A stretch of DNA of 64,000 bases, taken from assembly GCF_026130545.1 (NCBI RefSeq), contig NZ_JAMOIM010000008.1, positions 153,038 through 217,037 of the forward strand, in the 5' to 3' direction. The notes below the pieces were generated by a model that worked only from the letters and a program-made list of their open reading frames with translations, was not told where the DNA came from and did not search any database. Positions 13,435-30,802 of the stretch are shown here, piece by piece (position 1 is the first letter of the stretch; every line of letters starts with the position of its first letter). The stretch comes from Lichenifustis flavocetrariae (GTDB lineage Bacteria; Pseudomonadota; Alphaproteobacteria; Rhizobiales; Beijerinckiaceae). A program made the translations under genes and the position numbers.

Positions 13435-14304
13435 TCAGCTGGCGGCCCGCGGTCTCATGCCGCCGGAAAGAAACCAAAGCACCGACGTGAGGACGACCGC
13501 ACCGCCGACCAGTACGGTCCGGCCGGGTTGCTCGGCGAAAAACAGCCAGACCCACAGGGGACCGAGAATGACGTCCAGCATCGAGATGAAGCCGGCCTCG
13601 CCGGAGCCGATGCGGCGACTGCCATCGAGCGCCAGTGTGTAGGCGACGCCCGTCGTCAAAATGCCGAAGGCCGCCAGGATCGTGAGCTGCTGGAGACTTG
13701 GAACGGCGACTGCCATCAGTGGCCAGCTGATGACGGCGCAGAGCCCCGCCGCAATGGCGATCACCAGCGTCATGTTGATGTCGGGATGCCGCTTGGCATG
13801 GACGAGCTGGGTCCCGAAGCCGACCGTCATCGCGAAGGCCGCCAGATTGCCCGCGATGTCCTTCGGCTCGGTCGCCGAGCCCGCCATGATCGCGATTCCA
13901 ACCAGCGCAATGGCACTGGCGATGAGGATGCGGGTGCTCGCCCGCTCGCCCAGCCACACGAAAGCGATCCCGGCCGCCACGAAGGGCAGCGTCGCGTAGA
14001 TCGTCATCACATTGGCGACGGTGGTCAGCTTCAGGGCGAACACGTAGCAGATCGTGGCCATGATCGAGGTCGCGACCATGAACAGCTCCGACCATCCCAG
14101 AGACGTGGCATCCCGGATGGCGCGAGGGCCTGATTGAATCGAGAACAGGCCACCGAGGAAGATCGCCGAAAACAGCGACCGCCACCCCAGCACGGTCCAG
14201 GCGTCGAGATCCGCCATGCGGACGAACAAACCGGCCGTGCTCCACAACACCGCGGAGAGCGCGACGAGCGCCATCCCGGTGGGCCGGCTACCCGAGAGTT
14301 GCAT
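13435..14304 (-). CDS. EamA/DMT-superfamily transporter
   Basis: 10 TM helices; 'ALSAVLWSTAGLFVRM' resembles the EamA duplicated domain. Confidence 0.7.
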   Translation of the reverse strand: MQLSGSRPTGMALVALSAVLWSTAGLFVRMADLDAWTVLGWRSLFSAIFLGGLFSIQSGPRAIRDATSLGWSELFMVATSIMATICYVFALKLTTVANVMTIYATLPFVAAGIAFVWLGERASTRILIASAIALVGIAIMAGSATEPKDIAGNLAAFAMTVGFGTQLVHAKRHPDINMTLVIAIAAGLCAVISWPLMAVAVPSLQQLTILAAFGILTTGVAYTLALDGSRRIGSGEAGFISMLDVILGPLWVWLFFAEQPGRTVLVGGAVVLTSVLWFLSGGMRPRAAS

Positions 14305-18393: not shown

Positions 18394-18442
18394 GGCATTG
18401 CGACCGCTTGAGAGTGCGCCGAGGCGATGTCCGATCTCCGCC

Positions 18443-20413
18443 TCACGGGATCGCAACTCGGGCATCCGGAGGGAGCGGAAATGCCCGGTTCCATTCCGCA
18501 CGTTTTTCCCGGTAGAGGGCTTCGTAGTCGGCCTGACTCATCCCTTGAGCCGTCTCGATGTCCATGTTCAGCGCGATCTGATGATACACGTCGAGGTTGG
18601 TCAGGTCCGGAGGCGGCAATGTGCCGGCTTCATACATCGCCCACATGTCCTGGAAGGCCCGCTCCAGATGCGACACGAGACGCGGCGTGTCGAACAGCAG
18701 GCAGGTGTCACGCCCATCACGCAACCGCTCCTTGAGGCTTGCCAGTAGATCGCGATCCTGACCGAGTTCGACCGCACGGGCCACATAGGTCTCCGTGCTC
18801 TCACAGACGAGATCGGGCATCCCCGCCGCGGTGACCAGACTTGCGCAGACCCGGGACGCAAAACCGCGTCCCGGATGGGTCAGCACCGGGACCCCCATCC
18901 ACAAGGCATCCGCCGCCGTCGTATGGGCGCCATAAGGGCTGTTGTCGAGAAACAGATCCGCGAGCTGGTAGCGGGCCACGTGCTGCGGGTTGGTCGTCTT
19001 TTGCGCGAAGACCAGGCGGTCAGGCGCAATGCCGCGTGCGTTCGCCCAATCGCGCAGGCGACCTTGTGTCTCCGGCGTGCCACCGAGCAGCCAGAGCACG
19101 CTGTGAGGCACTTGTTCGAGGATCTTCATCCACAGTGTGAATGTCGCTTCCGTCAATTTCTGCAGACCGTTCAGGCAGCAATAGACGATCGCATCGTCGG
19201 GCAAGTGCTCGTTCTGCCGTGACGGCGACTGGCTCGCCACGACCCGCTTGCGGTCGTTGGGCTGGTAACACGGCAGACGTAGGACGGTTTCCGAGAAGTA
19301 GCGTTCATGGCCGTCCGGGACCGTCTGGGAATCGGCCAGGATGAAGTGGTGATAAGGGCTTCCCATGGTGGCAGGAAACCCGAACCAATTCACAGCGATC
19401 GGCGCCGGCCGCAAGGCGAATACCCGCGTTCGCGCGTCCTTGGTGTAGCCGTTGAGGTCGATCAGAATGTCGATGCCGTCGTCGCGGATTTTCTGCGCCG
19501 CCGCTTCGTCAGACAGCCCGCTGATGTCCGTCCAGTGATCGACCGCCGCCTTGGTCCGCGCCTTGGTCGGGTCGTCGCGTGAAATACCGCAATAATAGGC
19601 ATGGATGACGAAGCGGTTCCGATCGTGCAGTTCGAGCGTCTCGACGATCGAGAAGCCGACAGCATGTTCGCGCATGTCGGAGGATACGTAGCCGACTCGC
19701 AACCGTGTTTTCGACCCGGGCACCGGAGGGGGCGGAGGTTCCATCGGGGTGACCCGGCCCACCAGAGCCTTGTTGTAGTGGCAGGCGTTGGCGAGCTGGA
19801 ACAGCGGATCGTCGACCAGCGTCGCGAGCGACAGGGGCGAGATCCCGGCCAGGAGATCGCGCCGCGTGATCCGGTCGAAGGGTGTCAGCACCGGCCAGCG
19901 GCATTGCCGCATACGGAGCGCGATCCAGTGCTGGATCACCTTGTCGTCGCGCGCGAGTTCGAGGCGCCGTCTGAGCGCATCCTCGGCCGGGCCATCCTGG
20001 TCAAGCCCTTCAAGGACCCGGCCCGTGTTTTCGAGTGCCATGATCTTATGAGTCAGGCTCTCGGCATTGACGGCCACAAGATCTTCCGCGACGGCGAGCC
20101 AGTGCCTGATGGCCGGCCCGTTCTGGCCGGTTTTTTCGAGTGCGAGCCCAAGACTCAGCTGGGCTTGGTGAAAATCCGGCTTGAGCCGGGCCGATTCCCG
20201 GAACGCGATGATGGCGCCGGCCGTGTCCGGCGCCTCGTTCAGCGATGTCCCATAGTTGAAATAAGCGGCGTAGAGGAGCGGATCGTCCTCGTGGCAGGCG
20301 ATCCACATCTTGTAGAGGTCGATGACCGCCGATGGTTGCCCGGATCGCTTCGTGATCTCGGCCAAACCGAACAATTCACCGATCGAGAGGTTTTGGAAGG
20401 CTCCAACGTCCAT
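18443..20413 (-). CDS. TPR-containing GT41-family glycosyltransferase (O-GlcNAc transferase / SPINDLY-like)
   Basis: C-terminal OGT-like catalytic blocks 'VYCCLNGLQKLTEATFTLWMKILEQVPHSVLWLL...RLVFAQ...YQLADLFLDNSPYGAHTTAADALWMGVPVLT' preceded by TPR repeats. Starts 62 nt after the giant repeat gene stop. Confidence 0.8.
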   Translation of the reverse strand: MDVGAFQNLSIGELFGLAEITKRSGQPSAVIDLYKMWIACHEDDPLLYAAYFNYGTSLNEAPDTAGAIIAFRESARLKPDFHQAQLSLGLALEKTGQNGPAIRHWLAVAEDLVAVNAESLTHKIMALENTGRVLEGLDQDGPAEDALRRRLELARDDKVIQHWIALRMRQCRWPVLTPFDRITRRDLLAGISPLSLATLVDDPLFQLANACHYNKALVGRVTPMEPPPPPVPGSKTRLRVGYVSSDMREHAVGFSIVETLELHDRNRFVIHAYYCGISRDDPTKARTKAAVDHWTDISGLSDEAAAQKIRDDGIDILIDLNGYTKDARTRVFALRPAPIAVNWFGFPATMGSPYHHFILADSQTVPDGHERYFSETVLRLPCYQPNDRKRVVASQSPSRQNEHLPDDAIVYCCLNGLQKLTEATFTLWMKILEQVPHSVLWLLGGTPETQGRLRDWANARGIAPDRLVFAQKTTNPQHVARYQLADLFLDNSPYGAHTTAADALWMGVPVLTHPGRGFASRVCASLVTAAGMPDLVCESTETYVARAVELGQDRDLLASLKERLRDGRDTCLLFDTPRLVSHLERAFQDMWAMYEAGTLPPPDLTNLDVYHQIALNMDIETAQGMSQADYEALYREKRAEWNRAFPLPPDARVAIP

Positions 20414-20474
20414 CTACGAGTCCGATTTCGCAGCGGCCGCGCGACCTCCACGTCTACGACAGGTCCCCTGCATT

Positions 20475-23400
20475 CTACGAGGCGGCCTCGCTCAATGCGG
20501 CCAGTTGTGCGGCAGTCATGACGGCGGTTTGTGTGGTTGTGAGGGCGGCGATCTGGACCCCGTTCAAGGCCTCGATTTCGGTCACTGTCAGGTTGGAGAT
20601 CGTGGTCGTGCTGAGCGTCGACACCTGGGTCGTGGTCAGGCCGCTGAGCTGTACGGCACTCAGCTGTGCGAGCGTCGTCGCGCCGAGATTGCTGAGCTGC
20701 AGCGTCGACAGGCCGCTGATCTGCGTCGGCGTCAAGGCGCTGAAAAGCGTCGAGGTCAGGCCGGAGAGTTCCGTCGTCGTCAGGTTGACCATCTGCGTGG
20801 TCGTCAGCGATGCGATCTGGCTCGCCGACAAAGCGTTGAGCTGACTGGTCGACAAGGCGCGAAGCTGATCGCGCGCCAGCCCTGTCAGCTGGCTGGCGGT
20901 GAGCCCGGCCACCTGCGTGGTGCTCAGGGCCGCCACGTCGGCCGACGAGAAGGCCTGCAGCTGGACCGCCGTGAGCCCCGCGAACTGGGTCGACGTGAGT
21001 GCCGCGAGCGCCGTCGGGGCCAGGCCCGCGATGGCCGCGCTGGAGATCCCGCCGATCTGGGTCGCGGAGAGCACCGCGAATTGCGTCGTGGTCAAGGAAG
21101 CGATCTCGGTGGCCGACAGGCCGCTCATCTCGGTCGCCGACAGAAGACCGATCTGTGTCGTGTTCAGGCTCGCGAACTGGGTCGCGGTCAGTGCCGAGAT
21201 GGCGGAGGCCGAGAGGCTGCTGAACTGCGTCGAAGAGAGGGCGGCGATCTGTGTCGTGGTAAGCTCGGAGACGGCCGTAGTCGAGAGGGCGGACATCTGC
21301 GTCGCGGTCAGCGCACTCACCTGGGTCGACGACAAGGAGGCGAGCTGGCTCTGGCTCAGGCCCGCGACACCCGTGGTGGAGAGCGCCGCGATCTGGGTCG
21401 CGCTAAGCGCCGCGAGATCGTCCTCGGAGAGCGTCGCGATCTCGGCCGAGGTGAAGCCGCTCATCTCGGTGGCCGTCAGAAGCCCGAGTTGTGTCGTGGT
21501 CAGCGCTGCGAACTGGGTCGACGTGAGCGCGCCGATTTCCGTCGAATTGAAGCCTTGCAACTGCGTGGTGGTGAGCGCCCCGATCTCGGCGAGCGTCAGG
21601 CCCGCGATGGCGGTCGTCGGCAACCAGGAGAGCTGGGTGGAGCTCAAGGCGCCGAGCTGATTTGGCGACAGGGCGCCGAGCTGGGTCGATGTGAGCCCGC
21701 TGAGACCTGTGGTCACGAGTGCCCCAATCTGCGTCGCGTTCAGGGTCGCGAGTTGCGTCGGCGTCAGTGCCCCGACCTGCGTTGCCGTCAAGCCGCCCAT
21801 CTCGGTGGTCGACAGAAGCGCGATCTGGCTTGTCGTAAGACCGGCGAATTGCGTGGACGACAGGGCCGCAATGCCGGTCGCCGAGAGACTGGCGAACTGT
21901 GTCGTCGTCAGCGCGGCGAGTTCGGCGTTGCTGAGACCACTGAGCGCAGTGGTCGATAGCCCCGCGATCTGTGTCGACGTAATGGCCCCGAGTTGCGTCG
22001 TCGACAGCAGCCCGATCTCGGTGGAGGTCAAGCCGCCGACCGCCGTCGTGCTGAGGGCTCGCAGAGCCGTCGTCGTCAGGGCCGCGACTTGCGCGGCGCT
22101 GAGGTCCGACACTTGCGTGGCGGTCAGACCCTGGGCCTGCGTGGTCGTGAGGGCGGCGATCTCCGAGGCCGTAAAGGCGTCCATCTGCACCGTTGAGAGC
22201 GCACCGATCTGCGTGGAACTCAAGGCGCCAAGCTGATCCGGCGTGAGGGCGGCGATCTGGCTGGTTGTGATGCCGCTGACGCCAGCCGTGGACAAGGCTG
22301 CAAGCTGCGTCGTTGTGAGGGCGTTGAATTGGCTGGCGGTCAGCGCGGAAGCCTGGGTTTGCGTCAGCCCCGCGATGCCGCGAGTCGTGAAGGCGCCAAG
22401 CTGTGTCGTGGTCAGCGCCGCGACGACCTGACTGCTGAGCGCGCCAACCTGAGTCGACGTGAGGCCACGGATTTGCAGGATCGTCAGGCCGGTCGCTTCG
22501 CTCGTCGTCAGGGCCGCGATGGCTGTGGTGGAGAGGCCCGAGATCTGCGTTGAGGAGAACGCACCGAACTGGCCCGCGCTCAAGCCGACGATCTGCTGGT
22601 CGTTGAGCGCCGACATCTGCGTCGCCGTAAGGGCCTGAACCTGTGTGATCGTCAGGGCCGCGAGTTCCGTGGTCGTCAAGCCGCTCACGGCCGAGGTGGA
22701 GAGCGCCGCCACCTGGGTGTCGGCAAGCGCGCCGATTTGCGTCAGTGTAAGTGCTGCCGCCTGCGCATTCGTGAGGCCGCCGAGTTCGGCCGAATTCATG
22801 GCCGCGACTTGCGTGGCCGTGAAGGCCGAGATTGCGGTCGTGCCGATCGCGCCCAACAAGGTGGGCGTCAGGCCGCGCACCTGGGTTGTGCTGAGCGCGG
22901 CGAGTTCGGTCGTCGTCAGCCCCGTGATGGCGCCGGGATCGATCGCCGCGATCTGCGTCGACGACAGGGCGGCGAGTTGGCCGATCGTCAAGGCGCCAAG
23001 TTGGGTGTCGGCGAGCGCATCCATCTGTGTGGTGCCGAGCGCCGCGATCTGGGTACTGGTCAAAGCTGCGATATCAGAGATCGACAGCCCGCCAAGGCCG
23101 GTCGTCGACAAGCCGGCGATTTGGCTTGCGGCGAGCGCGGCCAGCTGGCCTGTGCTCAAGGCGGCGACCTGGGTATCGACCAGCGCGGCCACCTGCGTGC
23201 TGCCTAGGGCCCCGAGCTGTGTTGCGCTCAAACCCGCGAGTTCGCTCGACGTGAACCCGGAGACAGCCGCCGCCGACAAGGACGAGATCTGGGTCGTCGC
23301 CAGGGTCGAGAGCTGAGCGGTAGTCAGCGCCGCGACCTGGGTCTGGTTGAGACCGCCCATCGCGGTCCGGGTCAGAGCCTGAATTTGTGCCGTACTGAGG

Positions 23401-26400
23401 GCGGCGATCTGCGTGTTGGCGAGTGTGCCAATCTCGGTGACGGTCAGGTTTGCGATTTGCGTGGAGGTCAGCGCCGCAATGGTGGTGGTCGTGAGGCCGC
23501 TGACGCCGGTCGTCGACAGGGCAGCCGCCTGCGCGGCCGTCAATGCGCCCACTTGCGTGGCTGTCATGGCCGAGATCTGCGTGTCCGTGAGGGCACCGAT
23601 CTGCGTCGTTGTCAGGGCGCCGATCTGCGTCAGCGTCAGCGCCGCGATATCGGTGCTGGTTAGGCCGCCGATGCCGGCGGTCGAAATGCGCGCGACCTGC
23701 GTGGACGTCAGGTTGCCGAGCTGCGTCGTCGAGAGCTGGGAAATGAGGGTCTGGGTCAGCCCCGAGATCGCGGAGGTGCTGAGGGCGGCGATCTGCGCCG
23801 CGCTCAGGGCGGCAAGCTGAGTCCCGGCAAATGCGCTCGCCTCAACCGCGGTCAGGGCCGAGACTTGCGTGGTCGTCAGGCCCGAAATTTGGGTCGCCGT
23901 CAGTCCGCTGAGGCCGGTGGCCGAAAGGGCGGCGATCTGCTGCGTCGAGAGCTGCCCCAATTGCGTCGCCGAGAGGCTGCCGATCTGTGTATCCGTCAAG
24001 GCTGTGATCTGGCTTGGCGTCAACGCCGCGAGTTGCGTCGTGTTCAGGGCCTGCATGGCGGACGTGCTGAGCCCGGGAAGGCTATTGGTGGAAAGGGCTG
24101 TGGCCTGTCCGGTCGTGAGGGCTGCGATCTGGCTCGTCGTCAACTGGCCGAGTTCGGTGGGGGTGAGGGCCGTCGCCGCCGTGGTGGTGAGGGCCGCGAC
24201 CTGGGTCGTCGAAAGAGCGGCCAATTGCGTCCCGCTGAGAGCCGCCGCTTCGGTCGCGGTCAGAGCGCCGACCTGGGTCGTGCTGAGGCTCGTGACCTGG
24301 GTCGCCGTGAGACCGCTGATTCCGGTCGTCGAGAGCGAGGCGACCTGGCCCGGCGAAAGATTGGCGATCTGGCTCGTCGACAAAGCGGCGACCTGCGTGT
24401 CCACAAGGGCGTTGGCCTGCGCGCTCCCGAGGACGGCCACCTGGGTCGTCGCCATTGCGGCGATCTGGCTCGTCGTCAATCCGCCAAGACCCGTCGACGA
24501 GAGGGCCGCGATCTGGGTGATCAGGAGCGCGGCGATCTGGGAGGTGCCGAGAGCCGCCACTTGGGTGCCGAGCAGCGCTTTGATCTGGGTCGCTCGCAGC
24601 GCCGTCAGCTGGCTCGTCGTCAGGTTCATCAGATCGGATGAAGAAAGGCCTTGCAGGCCGGCGACCGAGAGCGCCCCGACCTGTGTCGTGGTGAGGGCCG
24701 CCATTTGAGCCGAGGTCAGGGCCGTGACCTGCGTCTGGTTCAGTCCACCGACCGCCGTCTGGCTGAGCGACGGGATCTGCGTGGTGGTGAGCGACTGGAT
24801 CTGGGTGCCCGCAAAACCGCCGAGCTCAATGGCGGTCAGTTGGGCCACCTGTGTCGTGGTGAGGGCCGCGATCGTGCTGGTCGCGAAGCCACCCACGCCG
24901 GTGGCCGACAGTGCCGCGAATTGGGCCGCCGACAGCACGCCGATCTGTGTCGCCGTCAGGGCCGCCACCTGGGTCGCCCCCAGGGCGCCGACCTGCGCGG
25001 GTGTGAGGGCGTTCAGCTGGGTCGAGGTCAGAGCGCCGATCTGTGTGGCGGTCAAGCCGGTCACGCCGCTGCTCGACAGCCTCGCGATCTGCGTCGTGGC
25101 GAGATTGCCGAGCTGGGTGATCGTCAGATCAGCGACCAGGCTCGCCGTCAGTCCCGAAATCCCGGAAGTTGTCAGCGCGCCGATCTGAGCCGGGCTCATG
25201 GCCTCGATCTGCGTATCGGCAAGCTGACCGACTTCCGTGGCCGTCAGGGCCGCGACCTGTGTGGTCGTCAAAGCGCCGATCTGCGTCACGGCCAAGCCGC
25301 TGAGGCCGGTCGAGGTGAGAGCCGCGATCTGCTGCGCCGAGAGTTGGCCGAGTTGGGCCGGCGACAGACTGGCGATCTGGGTGTCCGCCAGGGCTTTCAC
25401 CTGCGTGGCGGTGAGGGCGGAGATCTGCTGGGTGCTGAGGGCCGCGACCGCGCCTGTGCTGAGGGCCGCGACGGCGGTGGTTGACAAAGCCGCGACCTGG
25501 CGCGTCGTCAACGCGCCGAGCTGTGTGGTGCTGAGAGCCGACACCGCCGTCGTGGCGAACCCGCCCACCGCCCGGGTGCCGAGTGAAGCCACCTGCGTGG
25601 TGCTCAAGCTCGCGATCTGGGTTTGGCCCAGCGCTTGACCCTCAGTCGTCGTCAGCGCCGCAAGTTGGGTCGTGCTGAGGGCGCCCATCAAGGTTTCGGT
25701 CAGGCCGCTGAGGCCGGTCGTCGACAAGGCCGCGATCTGCGTCGTCGACAGCACGCCGAGTTGCGTCGTCGACAGCGCGCCGACCTGGGTGTCATCGAGA
25801 CTATTGACCTGGGTGCTGGTCAGCGCACCGAGTTGCGTGCCGCCAAGTGCCGCGATAGCGCTGGAATCCAGGCCGTTGATGCCGGTCGTCGACAGGGCTG
25901 AAACCTGGCTTTGATAAAGCGACGTCAGCTGGCTGGTGCTCAGGGACGCCACCTGGGTGTCGACCAATGCCGTGATCTGGACCGTTCGCAGGGCGGCGAG
26001 TTGCGTTGCCGCGAGGGCGGCAAGTTCGGTCGAGGTCAGGCCCGCGATCGCCGTTGTGGTGAGGGCCGCGATCTGGGTGGCCGCGAGAGCCGCCACTTGG
26101 GTGGTGGTCAACGTGGCGATCTGACTTTGGCTCAATCCGGCGAGTGCCGAGCGGGTCAATGCCGCGATTTGCGTCGGCGTCAGAGCGTTGATCTGTGTCA
26201 GCGCGAAGGCGGTAAGTCCGGTCGAGGTCAGCGCGCCGACCTGTGAGGTCGTCAGTGCCGAAACCGTGTCGGTGGTCAGGCCAGCGATCCCGGAGGTCGA
26301 CAGTGACGAAACCTGAACGGTGGTCAGTGCTGCGGTCTGCGTGGCCGTCAGGGCGCCAATCTGGGTCGCCGTGAGGGCGGCAACCTGTGTGCTGCTCAGG

Positions 26401-29400
26401 GCGCCGAGTTGCGTCAGCGCCAACGCCGAAAGCTGGGTATCGGACAGACCGCTCAGTCCCGTCGCGGTCAATTTGGCGATCTGGGCTGTCCCTAGGCTCG
26501 CAAGCTGAGCGGTGCTGAGATCGGACACGAGCGACGTCGTGAGGCCTGAGATTCCGGACGTGCTGAGGGCGCCGATCTGCGTCGCGCTCATCGCCTGGAT
26601 CTGTGTATCCGCGAGTTGGCTCGCCTCGGTCATGGTCAGAGCCGAGACCTGGGTCGTCGTCAGAGCCGCCACCTGGGTCACGGCAAGTCCGCTGAGGCCG
26701 GTCGACGACAGGGCGGCGATCTGCTGAATGGAGAGCTGCGCGAGCTGTGTTTGCGAAAGGTTGGCGATCTGCGTGTCGACCAGCGTCCGCATCTGCGTGG
26801 TCGTCAGAGCGCCGATCTGCTGCGTGCTCAAGGCCGCAAGGGCGGACGGCGTGAGCGCCGTGATGCCGGTCACCGACAGTCCGGTGATCTGCTGGGTCGT
26901 GAGCGCGCCGATCTGCGTCGCGCTGAGTGAGGTCAGGGCTGTCGTGGCCAGGCCGCTGGCCGCCGTCGTGCTGATCGCGGCCACTTGCGTCGTGCTGAGG
27001 GCCGCGAGTTGCGTTTGGGTCAGTGCGCCGATGCTTGCCGAGGTCAGGGCGCCCAATTGTGTCGTGTTGAGCGCTGCCAGTAATGAAACCGTAAGGCCCG
27101 TGACGCCGGTGGTGGACAGCCCCGCGATCTGGGTGACGTTCAGGCTACTCAGTTGCGTGATGCTGAACGCGCCGATCTGGGTATCCACCAGACCGCTGAC
27201 GGCGCTTCGCGTCAGTCCGCTGAGTTGGACATTGGTCAGCGCGGCGATCTGGTCGCTGGTGAGCGCCGACGATTCCGTGCTGGTCAACCCCGACATCTGG
27301 GTGACGCTGAGCTGCCCGATCTGATCGAGGGTCAAACCGCCGATCTGCGTTGTCGTCATCGCGCCGATTTCGGCCGAGGTCAGCGATGCGAATTGCGTCA
27401 ACGACAGATTGCCGAGCGAGGTCGCGCTCAGGTTTGCGACCTGGGTCGCCGAAAGAGACTGGACCGCCAGGGCCTGGATCGTGGCCTGGCTCATATCCGT
27501 CAACTGCGTGGCCGTGAACCCGCGGATCTGCGCGCCCGTCAAACCGGTCAATTGGGCGGTCGTCAGCTCGGCGAGGGCGGTATCGCTCATCCCTGAGATC
27601 TGAGTGGCGGTGAGGCCGGCCAGTTGGGTCGTCGTGAAGGACTGGACCTGAGTGGCCGCCAGTCCGTTCAACACCGTGGTGCTCATGGCGGCGATTTGCG
27701 AGGCCGTGAGTGCCGAGAGCTGGCTTGCCGCGAAGGCGCCGATGCTGTCCGTGCCCAGGCCGGCGATCTGGCTGGTGGCGAGCCGGGATGCCGTCAGAGC
27801 CTGGAGCGACGTCGTCGACATATCGGCCAGCTGAACCGTCGAGAAACCGGCCATCTGGGCCGCCGTCAGCGCCGCGAGTTGCGTCGTCGTCAGTTCGGCG
27901 ATCGTCGTGTCGCTGAGCCCGGCGAGCTGCAGGGCTTGCAGGCCCGCCACTTGCGTGGTCGTCATGGCCTGGATCGCGGCGGCCGAGAGGTTGCTGAGAG
28001 ACGTGGTTGAGAGGGCGCCGACCTGCGTTGACGTCAGGGCCGCCAACTGGGCATCGGAGAGGTTCGCCAGGGCCGTGGCGCTCAGATTGGCGACCTGTGT
28101 TGTCGATAGGAATGAAGCCGGCAAAGCGTTGAGCGAGGACGGAGCCATGTCACTCAGCTGGGTTGACGTCAGCCCCTGTACTTGAGGCGCTGTCAGCCCG
28201 GACAGGAGTGTCGTCGTCAAAAGACCTAGCGTCGTATCGGTCATGTTGCCGAGTTGGCGCGGCGCCAGTCCGGCCGCCTGCGTGGTGGTCAGAGCCTGGA
28301 TCTCGGTCGGCGTCAGATTGTTCAAGACGTCGCTGCTCAAAGCGCCGATCTGCGCCGCGGACAGCGACGTGACCTGGTCACTCGTGAGATTGGCGACCGC
28401 CGTCGTGCTGAGGGAAGCGACCTGGATTGTGCTCAGCGATCCGACCGTGAGAGCCTGGATCATCTCGGCTGGCAAGTCGGTCAACTGGGTCGCGGTCAAT
28501 CCTCGGATCTGGCCGGTCGTGAAGGCCGCGATCTGGGCCGGCGTGAAGGCGGCCAGTGTGGCGTCGGTCAGGCCAGAGATCTGGGTTGAGGTGAGCGCCC
28601 CGGTCTGCGTGCTGGTCAGCGCTTGCACTTCGTCCGTTTGCAGCGCGTTGAGGGAAGGAATCGAGAGGGCCTGGACTTGTGCGGCCGACAAGCCGGCGAT
28701 CTGCGTCGCCGAAAGGTTGGCGAAGGCCGTCGACGACAATTGCCCGATCTGCGTTGCCGAGAATGTTGCGACCGGAATCGCCTGCATGGCGGCGGTCGAC
28801 AACCCCGAGAGCTGGTTCGGCGTCAGCCCACGCACTTGCTGGGTCGTCAGCGCGGCCATCTGGGTCGTCGTCAGTTCGGCAAGGCTCGTGCTGGTGAGAC
28901 CTGTGATTTGGCTCGCTGTGATCCCGGCTTCCTGCGTGGCGGTGAGCGCCTGCATTTCATCCTGCGACAGCGCATTGAGACCGGAAACCGACAAGGCCCC
29001 GACCTGGGTCGCGGCCAGCGAGGCGACCTGCGTGGAGGAGAGGTTCTGGACCTCTGTCGCGTTGAGACCCGACATTTGCGATGCGGTCAGATTGGCGGGA
29101 TCGAGCGCCAGGATCTGGTTCAGGAGCAGGCTGTTGAGTTGTGCGGTCGACAGGGTACCGACCTGCGTGGCGTTCAACTGGCCGAATTGCGTGGCCGTCA
29201 AATTCGACAGGGTCGTCGTGGACAGGCCGGCGATCTGGGGTCTGATCAACGCACTGAGTTGCTGGACACTGAGGGATTGAACTTCTCCCGGATCGAGCGA
29301 ATTCAGTTCCTGCGCCGACAACGCCGACATCTGGCTCGACGTGAAGGCCGAGAGATCGCTGGCGGCGAGCGCGTTGAAGGACGCCAGTGAGAGCCCGGAG

Positions 29401-29606
29401 AGAGCCGAGGGCGAGATGCCGCTCACCTGGTTTGCCGAAAGTGCTTCGAGATTGGTGGTGCTGAATTCGATCAGTTCGACCGAGGTCAGCGCCGCGACTT
29501 CCGTGGTTTCGAAGCTTTCGACGTCGCTGGTCGTGAATTGCTGGATGGTGGTCGCACTCAGCCGCGCGATCTGCGCTGCCGTCATCGACGAAAGGATCGA
29601 TGTCAT
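20475..29606 (-). CDS. Giant (3043 aa) Ser/Thr/Gln-rich protein composed of ~380 tandem octapeptide repeats
   Basis: Uninterrupted 9132-nt ORF. Translation is almost entirely 8-aa units such as ALTTTQIA / ALSTTQVG / GLTATQIS (consensus [AGS]L[ST][ST][ST]Q[IV][AG]). No N-terminal signal peptide, no Cys, almost no charged residues. Confidence 0.8.
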   Translation of the reverse strand: MTSILSSMTAAQIARLSATTIQQFTTSDVESFETTEVAALTSVELIEFSTTNLEALSANQVSGISPSALSGLSLASFNALAASDLSAFTSSQMSALSAQELNSLDPGEVQSLSVQQLSALIRPQIAGLSTTTLSNLTATQFGQLNATQVGTLSTAQLNSLLLNQILALDPANLTASQMSGLNATEVQNLSSTQVASLAATQVGALSVSGLNALSQDEMQALTATQEAGITASQITGLTSTSLAELTTTQMAALTTQQVRGLTPNQLSGLSTAAMQAIPVATFSATQIGQLSSTAFANLSATQIAGLSAAQVQALSIPSLNALQTDEVQALTSTQTGALTSTQISGLTDATLAAFTPAQIAAFTTGQIRGLTATQLTDLPAEMIQALTVGSLSTIQVASLSTTAVANLTSDQVTSLSAAQIGALSSDVLNNLTPTEIQALTTTQAAGLAPRQLGNMTDTTLGLLTTTLLSGLTAPQVQGLTSTQLSDMAPSSLNALPASFLSTTQVANLSATALANLSDAQLAALTSTQVGALSTTSLSNLSAAAIQAMTTTQVAGLQALQLAGLSDTTIAELTTTQLAALTAAQMAGFSTVQLADMSTTSLQALTASRLATSQIAGLGTDSIGAFAASQLSALTASQIAAMSTTVLNGLAATQVQSFTTTQLAGLTATQISGMSDTALAELTTAQLTGLTGAQIRGFTATQLTDMSQATIQALAVQSLSATQVANLSATSLGNLSLTQFASLTSAEIGAMTTTQIGGLTLDQIGQLSVTQMSGLTSTESSALTSDQIAALTNVQLSGLTRSAVSGLVDTQIGAFSITQLSSLNVTQIAGLSTTGVTGLTVSLLAALNTTQLGALTSASIGALTQTQLAALSTTQVAAISTTAASGLATTALTSLSATQIGALTTQQITGLSVTGITALTPSALAALSTQQIGALTTTQMRTLVDTQIANLSQTQLAQLSIQQIAALSSTGLSGLAVTQVAALTTTQVSALTMTEASQLADTQIQAMSATQIGALSTSGISGLTTSLVSDLSTAQLASLGTAQIAKLTATGLSGLSDTQLSALALTQLGALSSTQVAALTATQIGALTATQTAALTTVQVSSLSTSGIAGLTTDTVSALTTSQVGALTSTGLTAFALTQINALTPTQIAALTRSALAGLSQSQIATLTTTQVAALAATQIAALTTTAIAGLTSTELAALAATQLAALRTVQITALVDTQVASLSTSQLTSLYQSQVSALSTTGINGLDSSAIAALGGTQLGALTSTQVNSLDDTQVGALSTTQLGVLSTTQIAALSTTGLSGLTETLMGALSTTQLAALTTTEGQALGQTQIASLSTTQVASLGTRAVGGFATTAVSALSTTQLGALTTRQVAALSTTAVAALSTGAVAALSTQQISALTATQVKALADTQIASLSPAQLGQLSAQQIAALTSTGLSGLAVTQIGALTTTQVAALTATEVGQLADTQIEAMSPAQIGALTTSGISGLTASLVADLTITQLGNLATTQIARLSSSGVTGLTATQIGALTSTQLNALTPAQVGALGATQVAALTATQIGVLSAAQFAALSATGVGGFATSTIAALTTTQVAQLTAIELGGFAGTQIQSLTTTQIPSLSQTAVGGLNQTQVTALTSAQMAALTTTQVGALSVAGLQGLSSSDLMNLTTSQLTALRATQIKALLGTQVAALGTSQIAALLITQIAALSSTGLGGLTTSQIAAMATTQVAVLGSAQANALVDTQVAALSTSQIANLSPGQVASLSTTGISGLTATQVTSLSTTQVGALTATEAAALSGTQLAALSTTQVAALTTTAATALTPTELGQLTTSQIAALTTGQATALSTNSLPGLSTSAMQALNTTQLAALTPSQITALTDTQIGSLSATQLGQLSTQQIAALSATGLSGLTATQISGLTTTQVSALTAVEASAFAGTQLAALSAAQIAALSTSAISGLTQTLISQLSTTQLGNLTSTQVARISTAGIGGLTSTDIAALTLTQIGALTTTQIGALTDTQISAMTATQVGALTAAQAAALSTTGVSGLTTTTIAALTSTQIANLTVTEIGTLANTQIAALSTAQIQALTRTAMGGLNQTQVAALTTAQLSTLATTQISSLSAAAVSGFTSSELAGLSATQLGALGSTQVAALVDTQVAALSTGQLAALAASQIAGLSTTGLGGLSISDIAALTSTQIAALGTTQMDALADTQLGALTIGQLAALSSTQIAAIDPGAITGLTTTELAALSTTQVRGLTPTLLGAIGTTAISAFTATQVAAMNSAELGGLTNAQAAALTLTQIGALADTQVAALSTSAVSGLTTTELAALTITQVQALTATQMSALNDQQIVGLSAGQFGAFSSTQISGLSTTAIAALTTSEATGLTILQIRGLTSTQVGALSSQVVAALTTTQLGAFTTRGIAGLTQTQASALTASQFNALTTTQLAALSTAGVSGITTSQIAALTPDQLGALSSTQIGALSTVQMDAFTASEIAALTTTQAQGLTATQVSDLSAAQVAALTTTALRALSTTAVGGLTSTEIGLLSTTQLGAITSTQIAGLSTTALSGLSNAELAALTTTQFASLSATGIAALSSTQFAGLTTSQIALLSTTEMGGLTATQVGALTPTQLATLNATQIGALVTTGLSGLTSTQLGALSPNQLGALSSTQLSWLPTTAIAGLTLAEIGALTTTQLQGFNSTEIGALTSTQFAALTTTQLGLLTATEMSGFTSAEIATLSEDDLAALSATQIAALSTTGVAGLSQSQLASLSSTQVSALTATQMSALSTTAVSELTTTQIAALSSTQFSSLSASAISALTATQFASLNTTQIGLLSATEMSGLSATEIASLTTTQFAVLSATQIGGISSAAIAGLAPTALAALTSTQFAGLTAVQLQAFSSADVAALSTTQVAGLTASQLTGLARDQLRALSTSQLNALSASQIASLTTTQMVNLTTTELSGLTSTLFSALTPTQISGLSTLQLSNLGATTLAQLSAVQLSGLTTTQVSTLSTTTISNLTVTEIEALNGVQIAALTTTQTAVMTAAQLAALSEAAS
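20484..29590 (-). repeat. 24-nt-period tandem coding repeat array (~380 units)
   Basis: Nucleotide-level 24-bp periodicity underlying the octapeptide repeats. Every alternative frame on both strands also gives long periodic pseudo-ORFs. Confidence 0.85.
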
Positions 29607-30004
29607 GGCCCGCTCGCTTCCACCGTCTCAGACATTGTCGCCTCCGGTCACAACGTTACGAAACGTAAGTCGCCAGATGGCATCCCGTTTTCCTTTAGCG
29701 TCCCGGCATTGCGCGAAGCTGTCCTGCGCCTCGCGATGAGCCCAAAAGACGAAGCACGACCGAAGCGGTGCAGAACCGAATCGCGCGGCCACTATCGCGA
29801 CGCTCTCGCCGTCCAACAATACCCGGATTCTTCGAGCCGCAATCTTGTGCCGTTTGTCGCGGACACAACACGCTGCGGCCAATGCGATGGCCCCGGGGGA
29901 GTTCCTGCCATCAACGATTGCAGCGCCGGACCGAGAGATTGAGCGCGCCTGTAACGGCGACCCAGGCCAAGTGCGGCGGGAACAGGGTCGCGGCCAAGCT
30001 GACG
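29607..30004. promoter_or_regulatory. Divergent intergenic region between the giant repeat gene and a GNAT gene
   Basis: ~400 nt non-coding, lower GC than surroundings; must carry the promoter(s) of the repeat-protein operon and the divergent GNAT gene. Confidence 0.35.
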
Positions 30005-30802
30005 ATGCGATATCAGATCGGCATGGGCCTCGATCTCAAAAGTCGCGATTTCCTGTGGGACGTCGAAGAAGCGTGTTCAAACGCTTTCCCGGCGGCCCGC
30101 GAAATCATCCTCGAAGGATGGCTTCTGCGTGCCGCGGGCGGGCGCACGCGGCGGACCAATTCCGTCAATCCGCTGCGTTTCGGGCCGCGCGATCCGACCG
30201 GCATCGTGCCCGAAGCCGAGGCGATCTACGCGTCACTCGACCGTCCGGCTTTGTTTCGCGTTCCGTCGCTCGTACCAGACATGGACATCGCTCTGCGGCG
30301 GCTCGGCTACGAGGCACAGGGTGAGGTCTGCACGCTCTTCGCCGACCTTACGGGGTTCGTTCCCGGCGAAGGCGCCGACTTCGCCCTCGCGTCGACACCT
30401 CACACGGGATGGTACGAGGCTTGGGCGGAGCTCGGCGAGAATCCATCACCGGCGATCGTTGCGGATTATCGGCGGTCGGTCGACACGCTGCTCTTGCCGA
30501 AGGCTTTCGCGTGCCGCCACGTCGACGGCACCCCCGTCGCGGTGGCCTATGCTGCCTTGTTTCGCGGGCTCGTAGTTCTGGAATCGGTGCTGACCCATCC
30601 GCTGCACCGGCAGCAAGGGCATGGGGGCGCGATCGTCCGGCGCCTCATGGCCTGGGCCAAGGAGAAGGGGGCCCAAGGCGTCTGTCTCCAAGTCACGGCC
30701 GACAATGGTCCGGCCCGTCAGCTCTACGCCCGGGCGGGCTTTACGACGGAACTCTACCGCTACCATTACCTGAGAGCGGGGACCACCTCTCACCAGTCGT
30801 AG
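30005..30802 (+). CDS. GNAT-family N-acetyltransferase
   Basis: C-terminal acetyl-CoA binding block 'HPLHRQQGHGGAIVRRLMAWAKEKGAQGVCLQVTADNGPARQLYARAGF' (motif A Q/RxxGxG/A). Start at the internal Met 'MRYQIG'. Confidence 0.6.
   Translation: MRYQIGMGLDLKSRDFLWDVEEACSNAFPAAREIILEGWLLRAAGGRTRRTNSVNPLRFGPRDPTGIVPEAEAIYASLDRPALFRVPSLVPDMDIALRRLGYEAQGEVCTLFADLTGFVPGEGADFALASTPHTGWYEAWAELGENPSPAIVADYRRSVDTLLLPKAFACRHVDGTPVAVAYAALFRGLVVLESVLTHPLHRQQGHGGAIVRRLMAWAKEKGAQGVCLQVTADNGPARQLYARAGFTTELYRYHYLRAGTTSHQS

Follow-up and report, generated by a model that had tools for sequence, protein, structure and literature searches.

Here, we describe a gene for a giant repeat protein of Lichenifustis flavocetrariae and the glycosyltransferase gene that follows it. 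The window referred to below is the whole stretch of DNA analysed, with a length of 64 kb. In our overall reading, to which we give about an even chance, the giant protein would be a 299-kDa helical-screw rod that is O-glycosylated by the GT41 enzyme encoded downstream, perhaps sulfated, and then exported as a surface fibre. This reading draws on sequence, prediction and gene context. The repeat anatomy, the family membership, the predicted fold, the purifying selection, the gene pair and the type of the enzyme are direct results of computation. Coordinates of all features are given in Table 1.

Table 1. Features of the giant gene and its neighbours; positions count from the first nucleotide of the window.
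Feature	Position	Strand	Evidence
Giant ALTTAQ-repeat (helical-screw, predicted) protein gene	20475..29606	(-)	ORF and translation, GC3, PF20080 match
N-terminal heptapeptide MTSILSS, aa 1-7	29586..29606	(-)	ortholog N-termini
N-terminal modular region, aa 8-750	27357..29585	(-)	register shifts, lag-109 identity
Unbroken-register array, aa 694-3043	20478..27527	(-)	phase table, position counts
Higher-order repeat, aa ~720-2200	23007..27449	(-)	lag identity
AlphaFold-modelled segment, aa 1494-1813	24168..25127	(-)	pLDDT 95.4, pTM 0.85
OGT-type glycosyltransferase GT41, 656 aa	18443..20413	(-)	PF13844, E=2e-82
TPR-sulfotransferase 1, 734 aa	16297..18501	(-)	Sulfotransfer_3, 4e-46, and TPR families
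TPR-sulfotransferase 2, 627 aa	14407..16290	(-)	Pfam; paralog of sulfotransferase 1
EamA-family membrane transporter	13435..14304	(-)	PF00892, 4e-23; last same-strand gene

The frame of the giant gene is open throughout its 9.1 kb and translates into 3043 aa, which confirms the single uninterrupted ORF of the original prediction. Its GC3 of 0.84 is the top value among the ORFs of the window, and thus the minus-strand frame is the coding one, whereas the long ORFs that overlap it on the plus strand are shadows. The protein has a computed mass of 299 kDa and a pI of about 4.05, and consists largely of T (18.7%), A (17.7%), L (15.5%), S (11.9%) and Q (9.9%). Cys is absent, as noticed before, and so is His; Trp and Tyr occur once each, and D, E, K and R together account for 4.2%. 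Ser, Thr and Ala, which had been put at more than half of all residues, sum up to 48.3%. No recognisable signal peptide was seen by eye, and the Pfam search returned neither an RTX domain (PF00353) nor a TPS domain (PF05860).

Residue identity within the protein is 0.35 at a lag of 8 and at its multiples (16, 24, etc.), compared to about 0.10 at other lags. With 3043/8 = 380 units, this is in good agreement with the continuous array of approximately 380 octapeptides reported at first sight, and the protein represents one solenoid-type repeat array. The unbroken array runs through 293 consecutive octads to the last residue with zero register breaks. Its consensus reads L (263 of the 293 units), [TS] (231), any residue, T (187), Q (187, plus 28 E), [ILV] (249), [AGS] and [AG], where position 2 is occupied by T in 128, S in 103, N in 11, D in 3 and G in 11 units. 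The N-terminal 750 aa also follow the period of 8, with a register shift of 5 residues approximately every 109 aa. This region is made of about six modules of 109 aa, each of which combines 13 octads with one 13-residue unit, QA[LI]xxxx[LF]S[AT]TQ, that moves the register by 5 residues. Shifts are located near aa 153, 265, 385, 489, 593 and 705, and the stutter motif itself was found at aa 275, 384, 602 and 711; identity in this region reaches 0.41 at lag 109, 0.39 at lag 218 and 0.37 at lag 327. A higher-order repeat of 464 aa (58 octads) is superimposed at aa ~720-2200 in about three copies of 45-76% identity, and identity is 0.49 at lag 464 and 0.46 at lag 928.

At the DNA level, neighbouring 24-nt units share only about 50% of their nucleotides, and patches of 2-5 copies were all that Tandem Repeats Finder reported in the gene. 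The ortholog of Lichenihabitans sp. Uapishka_5 likewise comprises 3043 aa and aligns without a gap at 64% identity, with only 48% identity at third codon positions and 86% conservation at unit positions 1 and 5. In this comparison, dN/dS is approximately 0.29/1.09 (about 0.26) for the giant gene versus 0.22/1.23 for the GT41 gene. Orthologs exist in at least 8 further genomes; they were found in Methylosinus, Methylocapsa and Beijerinckia as well as in many metagenomes of varied G+C content. Their lengths range from 953 to more than 3350 aa, and length differences are limited to part of the 464-aa repeat, with the deletions of loci L002 and L003 falling within aa 745-1866. The repeat array is old and under purifying selection. 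The exact giant protein is absent from a collection of 15 billion sequences in which the adjacent GT41 protein is present, as might be expected of an assembly artefact or a decaying pseudogene. Such an origin is extremely improbable, however, since adjacent DNA units share just half of their nucleotides and a separately assembled ortholog has the same length; the lack of indels, the low dN/dS, the open 9.1-kb frame and the orthologs in further genomes speak against it as well.

The giant protein had been regarded as akin to nothing known. It matches Pfam family PF20080 (ALTTAQ_rpt) over its whole length in 110 stretches (E=1.6e-294, 949.7 bits at a gathering cut-off of 26.4 bits), and the terminal 126-128 aa at either end each match the family; it is thus not an object without family. 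A profile search, of the kind proposed along with the original prediction, returned thousands of relatives: a 40-unit profile found 7162 cluster representatives at E<=1e-3, 847 of them at E<=1e-30, among 1.84 billion proteins. A literature search retrieved no paper using the word ALTTAQ. In most members of the family, the repeat forms one module alongside TPS, RTX, Ig-like, Calx-beta or peptidase domains, whereas the giant protein is repeat only, from residue 8 to the end and without any other domain, and is tied to GT41.

Structure prediction of a repeat segment, a further check proposed at the outset, yielded about one short alpha-helix per octad. In the AlphaFold model of 320 aa, 39 helices of 4-6 residues, mostly 5-6, are found, each of which begins at unit position 3, and 313 of the 320 residues reach a pLDDT of at least 90. 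The N-terminal 400 aa, modelled without an alignment, gave a pLDDT of 80 and the same mini-helix pattern from residue 3 onwards. The only solved sequence relative that we found is the designed protein HeliScrew4 (9zem_A), which matches aa 189-297 of the modelled segment over 109 residues, ungapped, with E=4e-14; 9ZEM was not among the returns of either structure library. HeliScrew-type criteria include 2.5-4 units per turn and clockwise winding, and the assignment made here is one by sequence and predicted secondary structure. Taken together, the high-confidence short-helix model and the HeliScrew4 match indicate an alpha-helical solenoid, predicted with high confidence, rather than a beta-solenoid or a disordered mucin. 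The beta-solenoid or fibrous fold suggested before thus holds with respect to the solenoid-type array, but its beta structure is replaced by predicted short alpha-helices. In the same way, heavy modification, as suggested for a mucin-like polymer, gains strong support from the gene context, with the GT41 and sulfotransferase neighbours and a widely conserved pair of giant and GT41 genes, while mucin-like disorder is at odds with a segment that is predicted to be folded in regular helices almost throughout.

Each of the approximately 380 octads would then form a one-and-a-half-turn helix within one continuous alpha-helical screw. In the unit L1-[T/S]2-x3-T4-Q5-[I/L/V]6-x7-x8, residue 2 would act as helix N-cap and Q5 would close the capping box. 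L1 and residue 6 would form a hydrophobic staple and together the apolar core, and positions 3, 4 and 7 would face the solvent. The folded chain would be a thin, stiff, near-uncharged and hydroxyl-rich rod; speculatively, its length may be roughly 90-150 nm if a turn holds 2.5-4 units and rises by about 1 nm. Much of the Ser/Thr of the protein, namely that at unit position 2, is accounted for by helix N-capping, and S/T occupies this position in all ALTTAQ groups compared. The L-T-x-x-Q string is likewise attributed to helix capping; the LTXXQ (CpxP/Spy) family is absent among the Pfam matches at E<=1. No ice-nucleation family occurs among these matches either, and the 16-residue AGYGSTxT repeat of ice-nucleation proteins differs from the present one in period (8) and consensus. 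Both likenesses, pointed out in the original prediction, are therefore formal only. A Thr-lined rod might nevertheless offer an ice-binding, ice-nucleating or water-structuring surface to a lichen-associated bacterium, given that the predicted solenoid is rigid, that each unit has its Thr residues in fixed places, and that the source organism is lichen-derived. We consider this very improbable. Beyond the missing Pfam match, the orthologs are spread over the genera and metagenomes named above, the conserved partners are glycosylation genes with none related to ice, and an alignment of Thr on a flat face hinges on the number of units per turn.

The giant gene is followed on its strand, after 61 nt, by the GT41 gene. 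The product of the latter has an N-terminal TPR match at residues 42-108, followed by the catalytic domain, and matches solved structures of XcOGT (2jlb, 1e-81, query residues 130-564) and human OGT (3e-78), whereas the N-glycosyltransferases HMW1C-like 3q3e and NGT 8j30 reach E values of about 1e-3 only. The translation contains the motifs GYVSSD..EH, NGLQKL and GAHTT, which we take to be equivalent to the catalytic motifs of human OGT. A Lichenifustis flavocetrariae protein of 100% identity bears the NCBI name O-linked GlcNAc transferase, SPINDLY family. Judged by sequence comparison, the enzyme belongs to the O-GlcNAc-transferase (OGT) branch of GT41 and not to the HMW1C/NGT branch. The donor might also be fucose, as for SPINDLY (PMC9715652), or a further sugar other than GlcNAc.

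In each of the nine Hyphomicrobiales loci that include upstream DNA, namely the window, L001-L003 and L008-L012, the GT41 ortholog has as its neighbour a protein of period 8 whose N-terminus is of the MT(S)I type. Flanking genes other than this pair vary among lineages and are shared only by the near-duplicates L003/L009 and by L008/L011, which are linked to dnaA; dnaA is the gene adjoining the pair in Methylosinus and Methylocapsa. The pair is retained despite a different orientation in L002, L032, L060, L070 and L076. In metagenomes, a GT41 homolog (31-58% identity) was found in 30 of 80 loci, and in 26 of the 40 with at least 2.5 kb past the stop codon of the giant gene; these are raw counts without a background frequency of GT41, from loci, some of them duplicates, that were picked because their proteins resemble GT41-linked ones at the C-terminus. 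Sugar-nucleotide and methyltransferase genes often lie close by; the neighbours in these metagenome loci include an FkbM methyltransferase, a GT1-like transferase, DUF5672, a GDP-mannose-dehydratase-like enzyme, UDP-galactopyranose mutase, UDP-glucose dehydrogenase and SAM methyltransferases. ALTTAQ proteins of other architecture (L006, L007) have no GT41 neighbour. The GT41-linked proteins carry S/T at unit position 3 in 42-76% and at position 4 in 63-86% of their units, compared to medians of 22% and 26% in 101 other ALTTAQ proteins, and their K+R content is about 1% versus 4.1%. The giant protein belongs to a Thr-rich, charge-poor ALTTAQ subgroup tied to GT41.

The constant adjacency suggests that the giant protein is probably a dedicated and heavily glycosylated substrate of GT41. 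The acceptor positions are inferred as well: within the cytoplasm, GT41 would attach O-linked sugars to the additional Thr/Ser residues of the exposed unit positions 3 and 4, on a giant chain that is still unfolded or partly folded. Extended peptides are what OGT-type enzymes bind, and a well-folded screw would be a poor substrate for them if modification came only after folding. It is quite unlikely that the adjacency is real but GT41 modifies other proteins, or that the two genes share no more than their regulation. The compact predicted fold would agree with this, as would the acceptor sites, which are predicted ones, and the generally unknown or multiple substrates of bacterial OGT homologs (PMC11329713). 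Against it, the pair persists across lineages in which the other flanking genes mostly change, even in altered orientation, and the Ser/Thr enrichment at exposed positions is limited to GT41-linked proteins.

Two sulfotransferase genes follow on the strand of the giant and GT41 genes with gaps of at most 6 nt. The first product fuses an OGT-like TPR superhelix to a sulfotransferase domain: its TPR region matches the TPR domain of human OGT (1w3b) at 1e-55, and its catalytic domain a protein-tyrosine sulfotransferase (8w5z) at 4e-8. The second, encoded 6 nt further on, is 51% identical to it over 588 aa. Guided by their OGT-like TPR domains, both enzymes would modify the protein or its sugars in this genome, although the single Tyr of the giant protein leaves no obvious Tyr target for a TPST-like enzyme; we regard sulfation of the giant protein as speculative. 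Sulfotransferases were found beside the pair in only two of nine ortholog loci, and L001 has one copy after GT41. It is uncertain whether the EamA transporter belongs to the same unit as the giant gene and GT41; it was not found beside the pair in the other loci scanned.

More speculatively, the rod, once modified, would leave the cell without a Sec signal and form a hydrophilic surface fibre or spacer layer. Secretion genes (T1SS, TPS, flagellar) were not present among the genes scanned in the window or in the flanks of 16 other loci. Together with the missing signal peptide, RTX and TPS domains this makes a cytoplasmic location possible, where the giant protein would be a scaffold, a ruler or a storage polymer that GT41 modifies as eukaryotic OGT modifies intracellular proteins. 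OGT and PAPS-dependent sulfotransferases act in the cytoplasm, which suits such a role, and so do the exact length kept between two species and the position of the pair next to dnaA in Methylosinus and Methylocapsa. On balance we find an intracellular role unlikely. Elsewhere, the ALTTAQ repeat serves extracellularly and is combined with TPS, ESPR, RTX, Ig-like or Calx-beta domains, among them export domains, and the variation in ortholog length speaks against a universal ruler. Moreover, genes for Galf mutase, deoxysugar enzymes and methyltransferases, as found among the neighbours, are typical of surface glycoconjugates.

Concerning a route for the exported rod, orthologs and distant GT41-linked relatives share the N-terminal motif M-[TAS]-[ST]-I-x-[ST]-[SN]. 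Judged from sequence, the heptapeptide MTSILSS may serve in export or recognition, as a signal, or may cap the end of the solenoid. The former would allow the glycosylated rod to be exported unfolded via the flagellar type III apparatus, like a filament-class protein, a route that appears rather unlikely to us. N-termini of the giant family (MTSILSS in the window, MTSIVSSLT, MASIVSSLT, MASLISSLT, MTSSINNVTS, MATINNLSTG and MTINISLGSS) resemble those of flagellar proteins in PDB sequences, namely FlaA MTSILTNNSAMAAL (7sn9), FliD MASISSLGVGS (9m6i) and FlgK MSSLINHAMSGLNAAQ (9go6). Among 120 Rhizobiaceae flagellins, 37 start with MTSILTN and 33 with MTSIMTN. Given the composition, 5 or more matches in 9 positions would arise by chance with a probability of about 1e-3, for a likeness that was noticed post hoc and covers 7-10 residues only. 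The giant protein is also Cys-free, rich in A/T/S/Q/L and without a Sec signal, as are flagellar substrates. TPR-containing transferases such as FlmG glycosylate flagellin, and cytoplasmic O-glycosylation by a TPR-glycosyltransferase would be parallel to this. On the other hand, the giant protein has no Flagellin_N or Flagellin_C match, its terminal 126-128 aa show no flagellin, FliD or FlgK domain at E<=10, and no flagellar gene lies beside any locus examined. The 120 flagellins compared come solely from Rhizobiaceae. The heptapeptide might instead shield the solenoid core as an end-cap; residues 3-6 are helical in the AlphaFold model. The most far-reaching version of our reading would be a giant natural helical screw, hyper-glycosylated by a dedicated OGT-type GT41, sulfated in some lineages and exported as a glycorod of about 100 nm via a flagellar-type N-terminal signal, with this locus as the type example of a widespread, undescribed system. 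We put it forward tentatively, as a rather doubtful proposal.

In December 2025, the helical screw was presented as a fold that can be designed but hardly occurs in nature, a piece of protein "dark matter" (10.64898/2025.12.04.691947). If our reading is true, nature uses a near-identical octad in thousands of proteins of the ALTTAQ family, here in a rod of 380 units, which would provide structural biologists with natural material and designers with a natural benchmark. The roles of O-GlcNAc in bacteria are called unclear in PMC11329713; a conserved two-gene module would name a candidate substrate for bacterial OGT homologs. The fold would thereby gain a biology, and these enzymes a defined natural substrate. 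The TPR-fused sulfotransferases would further suggest that the substrate-capture mode of OGT is reused for protein or glycan sulfation in bacteria. Should the reading fail, the giant protein would still be well annotated, as part of a Pfam repeat family that is uncharacterised.

From a structural point of view, HeliScrew4 (9ZEM) is the nearest known system. It is a designed 8-mer alpha-helical screw of 120 residues, derived from random repeats, and its crystal structure shows helices N-capped by S/T/D/N around an apolar core; 7QLR is the only natural PDB example according to its authors (bioRxiv 10.64898/2025.12.04.691947). The units ALTPEQIA of HeliScrew4 and ALTTTQIA of the giant protein are alike, both with short helices, S/T N-cap and apolar core, a likeness of fold by sequence and secondary structure and not by superposition. 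The giant protein is 25 times longer, has Thr for Pro/Glu at positions 3 and 4, and alone possesses periodic 5-residue stutters and linked modification enzymes.

A very large repetitive protein beside a soluble glycosyltransferase is also found in HMW1A-HMW1C, EtpA-EtpC, AIDA-I/Aah and the serine-rich-repeat adhesins with GtfAB. HMW1C and EtpC are GT41 enzymes, too, and modification in the cytoplasm precedes export, as is proposed for the giant protein (see also PMC3012730 and PMC3983070). In contrast to HMW1C, which represents the N-glycosyltransferase branch (1e-3), the enzyme described here falls into the OGT branch (1e-81). The giant locus also differs in having no TPS domain, TpsB partner, accessory Sec system or autotransporter domain, and the substrate is a predicted alpha-helical screw instead of a beta-helix or a disordered Ser-rich region. 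Two-partner secretion of the HMW1C type was rejected: GT41 adjacency is present, but the enzyme is of the OGT branch, and there is neither a PF05860 match in the protein nor a TpsB gene in the window. A type I secreted RTX adhesin was rejected as well, as the protein lacks a PF00353 match and the window lacks adjacent ABC/MFP/TolC genes; a non-RTX C-terminal signal would be possible. The flagellin/FlmG system of Caulobacter shares with the giant protein a Cys-free, A/T/S/Q-rich sequence without a Sec signal, and the N-terminus resembles MTSILTN, MASISSLG and MSSLINH. The giant protein has 8-10 times the length of an ordinary flagellin, and it comes without flagellin N-/C-terminal domains or flagellar genes nearby.

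To our knowledge, little has been established about what XcOGT and similar bacterial OGT homologs modify in nature. XcOGT of Xanthomonas campestris (2jlb, 2vsy) is the closest solved relative of the GT41 enzyme, and in both a short N-terminal TPR region precedes the GT-B catalytic domain. Compared to XcOGT, the gene context described here nominates one specific candidate substrate.

The giant repeat protein is encoded by 3043 open codons on the minus strand. From residue 694 to its last residue it comprises 293 successive octads without a single insertion or deletion, so that the original prediction of an uninterrupted repeat ORF is borne out. The product has a mass of 299 kDa and a pI of about 4.05. 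It was rightly described as free of Cys and nearly uncharged (4.2% charged residues); His is likewise absent, and Trp and Tyr occur once each. The claim that more than half of it is Ser, Thr and Ala is slightly too high, the sum being 48.3%. The third-position G+C of 0.84 is the highest among the ORFs of the window, and therefore the minus-strand frame is the coding one, and the plus-strand ORFs inside it, which lose the same comparison, are shadows. The giant is a real object, and its repeat family is already in Pfam.

A collection of 15 billion proteins lacks the exact 3043-aa sequence but contains the adjoining glycosyltransferase (GT41): its entry P0113, from Lichenifustis flavocetrariae, which was isolated from a lichen and belongs to the Hyphomicrobiales, is 100% identical to the window GT41. 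In public annotation, the giant gene may be uncalled, have a different start or carry a pseudogene flag. Exact-sequence look-ups of the window GT41, P0113, the giant and sulfotransferase 1 returned no record. Upstream lies a short uORF with a TGA stop that shares bases with the giant ATG (ATGA), an arrangement suggestive of translational coupling; the uORF was looked for in four related loci (L001, L002, L003 and L010) and is conserved in none of them. An Rfam search of the whole window found no RNA family, and scans for promoters and terminators gave background level only.

Residue identity within the giant is 0.35 at each multiple of eight and about 0.10 at other lags. The repeat extends from residue 8, following MTSILSS, to the stop codon, without a separate terminal domain, and its consensus is L-[TS]-x-T-Q-[ILV]-[AGS]-[AG]. 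Octads also make up the N-terminal 750 aa, which form about six modules of 109 aa (lag-109 identity 0.41), each with one 13-residue unit, QA[LI]xxxx[LF]S[AT]TQ. Between residues ~720 and 2200, a super-repeat of 464 aa (58 octads) is found with 45-76% identity. Adjacent 24-nt units share only about 50% DNA identity and Tandem Repeats Finder reports short patches only, which marks the array as old and diverged. The same low identity of neighbouring units rules out a slippage-prone perfect repeat or an assembly artefact.

The orthologue in Lichenihabitans sp. Uapishka_5 (locus L001) likewise has 3043 aa and aligns without gaps at 64% identity, such that the length is conserved exactly between the two organisms. 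The DNA identity of both genes is only 67%, and 48% at third codon positions, which is near saturation. Nei-Gojobori estimates are dN 0.29 and dS 1.09 for the giant (GT41: 0.22 and 1.23), showing that purifying selection acts on the array. More distant orthologues of 2768 aa (Beijerinckia sp. L45) and 2332 aa (uncultured Lichenihabitans) differ only through deletions inside aa 745-1866; 20 out of 27 are multiples of eight residues, and the rest resemble compensating alignment offsets. Proteins of the wider group have between 953 and >3350 aa, and thus any role as a "ruler" would be local to a lineage.

The Pfam model PF20080 (ALTTAQ repeat) matches the giant with E=1.6e-294 in 110 stretches; an NCBIfam search gave no match. 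Weak Pfam matches to CAAP1, LRR_EndoS and Sigma70_r4_2 were discarded as compositional. ALTTAQ is a known but uncharacterised repeat family, and no paper with this word was found in the searched literature. With a profile of 40 units, 7162 representatives of 1.84 billion clusters were retrieved at E<=1e-3, 2919 at E<=1e-10 and 847 at E<=1e-30. Other ALTTAQ proteins are very large and carry the repeat as a module beside two-partner-secretion (TPS, PF05860), ESPR, RTX, DUF4347, Ig-like, Calx-beta or calpain domains, so that most of them are predicted to be exoproteins.

For the fold, a beta-solenoid had been proposed. AlphaFold2, run on aa 1494-1813 with an alignment of 26 ungapped in-register rows (non-overlapping segments of the giant and its homologues), predicts short alpha-helices instead (pLDDT 95.4, pTM 0.85). 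The model has 39 helices of 4-6, mostly 5-6, residues, approximately one per octad, and aa 1-400 gave the same mini-helix pattern without an alignment (pLDDT 80). With the octad numbered L1-[T/S]2-x3-T4-Q5-[I/L/V]6-x7-x8, the N-cap is formed by T/S2 and preceded by L1; the helix takes up positions 3-7, in which Q5 corresponds to N3 and I/L/V6 to N4. A capping box has the pattern S/T-x-x-E/Q, and a hydrophobic staple links N4 to the residue that precedes the N-cap. On the model, the octad is a combination of both, which explains the conservation of positions 1, 2, 5 and 6.

A search of PDB sequences revealed a match of the giant to 9zem_A, "HeliScrew4" (E=4e-14, 109 residues, ungapped). This designed protein with ALTPEQIA-like octads was derived from random 8-mer repeats and solved at 2.2 A (10.64898/2025.12.04.691947, a December 2025 preprint). 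It forms an "alpha-helical screw", called new by its authors, with 2.5-4 units per superhelical turn, an apolar core and S/T/D/N at the N-cap; 7QLR is given as the single natural example in the PDB, and ALTTAQ is unmentioned (10.64898/2025.12.04.691947). Papers citing 7QLR hold no description of its identity. Taking the predicted model and the similarity to the solved design together, the giant is best regarded as a natural helical screw of great length. The suggested likeness to ice-nucleation proteins does not fit and was dropped, and neither does a mucin-like polymer fit the predicted helices. A relation to LTXXQ/CpxP was also rejected.

Four genes follow the giant on its strand, namely GT41, two TPR-fused sulfotransferases and an EamA transporter (see table). 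The GT41 protein belongs to the OGT branch according to its sequence matches: it hits the Xanthomonas campestris OGT homologue with 1e-81 and human OGT with 3e-78, versus only 1e-3 for HMW1C-type N-glycosyltransferases. It contains GYVSSD..EH, NGLQKL and GAHTT, which we take to be the His498 region, Lys842 and the UDP-binding motif His920-Thr921-Thr922 of human OGT. N-glycosylation of the HMW1C type was ruled out for this OGT-type enzyme, despite 29 NxS/T sequons in the giant. The sulfotransferases are 51% identical to each other, and their TPR region matches the TPR domain of human OGT (1w3b, E=1e-55) with a repeated AHNNRGN-type motif. In OGT, an asparagine ladder holds extended substrate peptides, and the repeated motif probably represents a ladder of this type. 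The nearest relative of the catalytic domains is protein-tyrosine sulfotransferase (4e-8). An OGT-like TPR superhelix joined to a sulfotransferase domain suggests protein-directed sulfation; tyrosine sulfation of the giant was rejected, as it has a single Tyr. The surroundings consist of housekeeping genes (glyA, ribD, nusB, rplI, rpsF), sugar transport and pyrimidine catabolism. Cyclase genes occur in the window and beside the giant in L017, a link that is probably coincidental.

Features of the window and of related loci (L numbers: loci from other genomes or metagenomes with homologues of GT41 or the giant)
Feature	Locus	Positions	Strand	Remarks
Giant gene	window	20475-29606	-	ALTTAQ repeat protein
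GT41	window	18443-20413	-	656 aa; 61-nt gap from giant
Sulfotransferase 1	window	16297-18501	-	paralogue of sulfotransferase 2; 6-nt gap between
Sulfotransferase 2	window	14407-16290	-	
EamA transporter	window		-	
Long ORFs (<=545 aa)	window	20322-29942	+	many; overlap giant; antisense shadows of high-G+C, stop-poor repeat
uORF	window	29603-29635	-	10 codons, MSETVEASGP
Shine-Dalgarno sequence	window	29641-29645	-	strong, GGAGG; 5 nt ahead of uORF ATG
GNAT acetyltransferase	window	29768-30802	+	Rv0428c_C-like domain; divergent from giant, starts 161 nt apart
Adenylate/guanylate cyclase	window	49447-51177	-	2Fe-2S ferredoxin domain
CHASE2-cyclase	L017	620-2803	+	directly upstream of giant gene
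Giant-GT41 pair immediately beside dnaA	L008	12123-13616		Methylosinus; replication-origin region
Giant-GT41 pair immediately beside dnaA	L011	12054-13532		Methylocapsa aurea; replication-origin region
NAD-dependent epimerase/dehydratase	L009	591-1505		GDP-mannose-dehydratase-like; beside giant or GT41
same	L010	3048-4115		same
same	L012	5525-6556		same
same	L054	7528-8793		same
same	L050	9112-10086		same
Tandem large ORFs, same strand	L016	2-5401, 5425-9267		downstream ORF an ALTTAQ-type giant
same	L021	1-3312, 3349-7272		same
FkbM methyltransferase, GT1-like transferase	L021			between/beyond giant and GT41
DUF5672, GDP-mannose-dehydratase-like enzyme	L054			same
UDP-galactopyranose mutase	L045			same
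Extra TPR proteins	L032			same

The association of both genes is conserved. In all nine loci with DNA upstream of the GT41 orthologue (the window, L001, L002, the near-duplicates L003/L009, L008, L010 from a Rhizobiales bacterium, L011 and L012), GT41 adjoins a protein of period 8 that consists solely of ALTTAQ repeats and has an N-terminus of the MT(S)I type. In L002 the two genes are divergent, the outer flanks vary between lineages, and a sulfotransferase follows GT41 in the window and L001 only. A metagenome scan with a four-sequence alignment of giant C-termini gave 80 loci (G+C 46% to 71%). A GT41 homologue of 31-58% identity is present in 30 of these, and in 26 of the 40 loci with >=2.5 kb past the giant stop codon; these loci were chosen by likeness to GT41-linked proteins and include duplicates, and the frequencies stand without a background GT41 rate. 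The gene mostly lies 55-400 nt downstream of the giant or is convergent. UDP-glucose dehydrogenase, SAM methyltransferases and a deoxysugar-type dehydratase are still encoded in loci where no GT41 is in range. No GT41 neighbour was found beside ALTTAQ proteins of other architecture (L006, L007). In the tandem arrangements of the metagenomic loci L016 and L021, the upstream ORF may be a paralogue of the giant.

The GT41-linked group has a sequence signature of its own when six of its proteins are compared with the median of 101 other ALTTAQ proteins. All ALTTAQ proteins have S/T at the N-cap (median 84%), and the groups differ at the solvent-facing positions: S/T amounts to 42-76% versus 22% at position 3 and to 63-86% versus 26% at position 4. 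K+R make up about 1% versus 4.1%, and D+E 2.6-6.2% versus 8.2%. Such an enrichment at positions 3 and 4 would be expected of acceptor sites. SPINDLY, also a GT41 member, is an O-fucosyltransferase. As GDP-mannose-dehydratase-like genes recur at these loci, there are hints that the sugar transferred or elaborated may be a deoxyhexose, as with SPINDLY, and not GlcNAc. Nothing relevant was found in literature searches on substrates of bacterial OGTs or on SPINDLY-family proteins of methanotrophs.

As to export, no Sec-type signal (by eye), TPS or RTX domain was found in the giant, and a Pfam scan of 40 ORFs of the window gave no secretion or flagellar genes. Conservation of the N-terminal heptapeptide reaches far past the orthologues (MTSILSS, MTSIVSSLT, MASIVSSLT, MASLISSLT, MSVISSFT, MTSSINNVTS, MATINNLSTG, MTINISLGSS). 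These termini resemble those of filament-class flagellar export substrates in the PDB, i.e., FlaA (MTSILTNNSAMAAL, 7sn9), FliD (MASISSLGVGS, 9m6i) and FlgK (MSSLINHAMSGLNAAQ, 9go6), in a likeness that spans 7-10 residues and was spotted post hoc. Among 120 flagellin N-termini, all of them from Rhizobiaceae, 70 start with MTSI[LM]TN, and a composition-based chance estimate is ~1e-3. No flagellin domain is present in the giant (Pfam), nor are flagellar genes nearby. We regard the resemblance as a lead to flagellar-type export; it is just as possible that the motif caps the end of the solenoid. Within subfamilies, C-terminal tails are kept (..ALNDAAS, ..ALVTLLS, ..GAQLIGLMGK, ..DDLLRQQPLI), which would also suit a C-terminal signal like those of type I secretion. 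In the high-G+C subfamily (L026, L030, L054, L055, L068, L078, L082, L089), a non-repeat tail is shared, of which ..LDDELRLQTPLL and ..DDDSNKPLPLI are further examples; this tail resembles a conserved C-terminal tag for sorting or secretion.

Implementing all facts, the most likely mechanism, to which we would give an even chance, is that the giant is a rod-like structural protein that is O-glycosylated in the cytoplasm. With respect to the searched literature, four points are new: the connection of the natural ALTTAQ repeat to the recently designed helical-screw fold, the explanation of its unit by capping motifs, the exact length kept between two diverged species, and the conserved module of an ALTTAQ-only giant and an OGT-type GT41, here also with sulfotransferases fused to OGT-type TPRs. 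In function, the system is similar to the known pairs of an adhesin and its dedicated glycosyltransferase; it differs from them in the enzyme branch, the secretion domain and the fold of the substrate.
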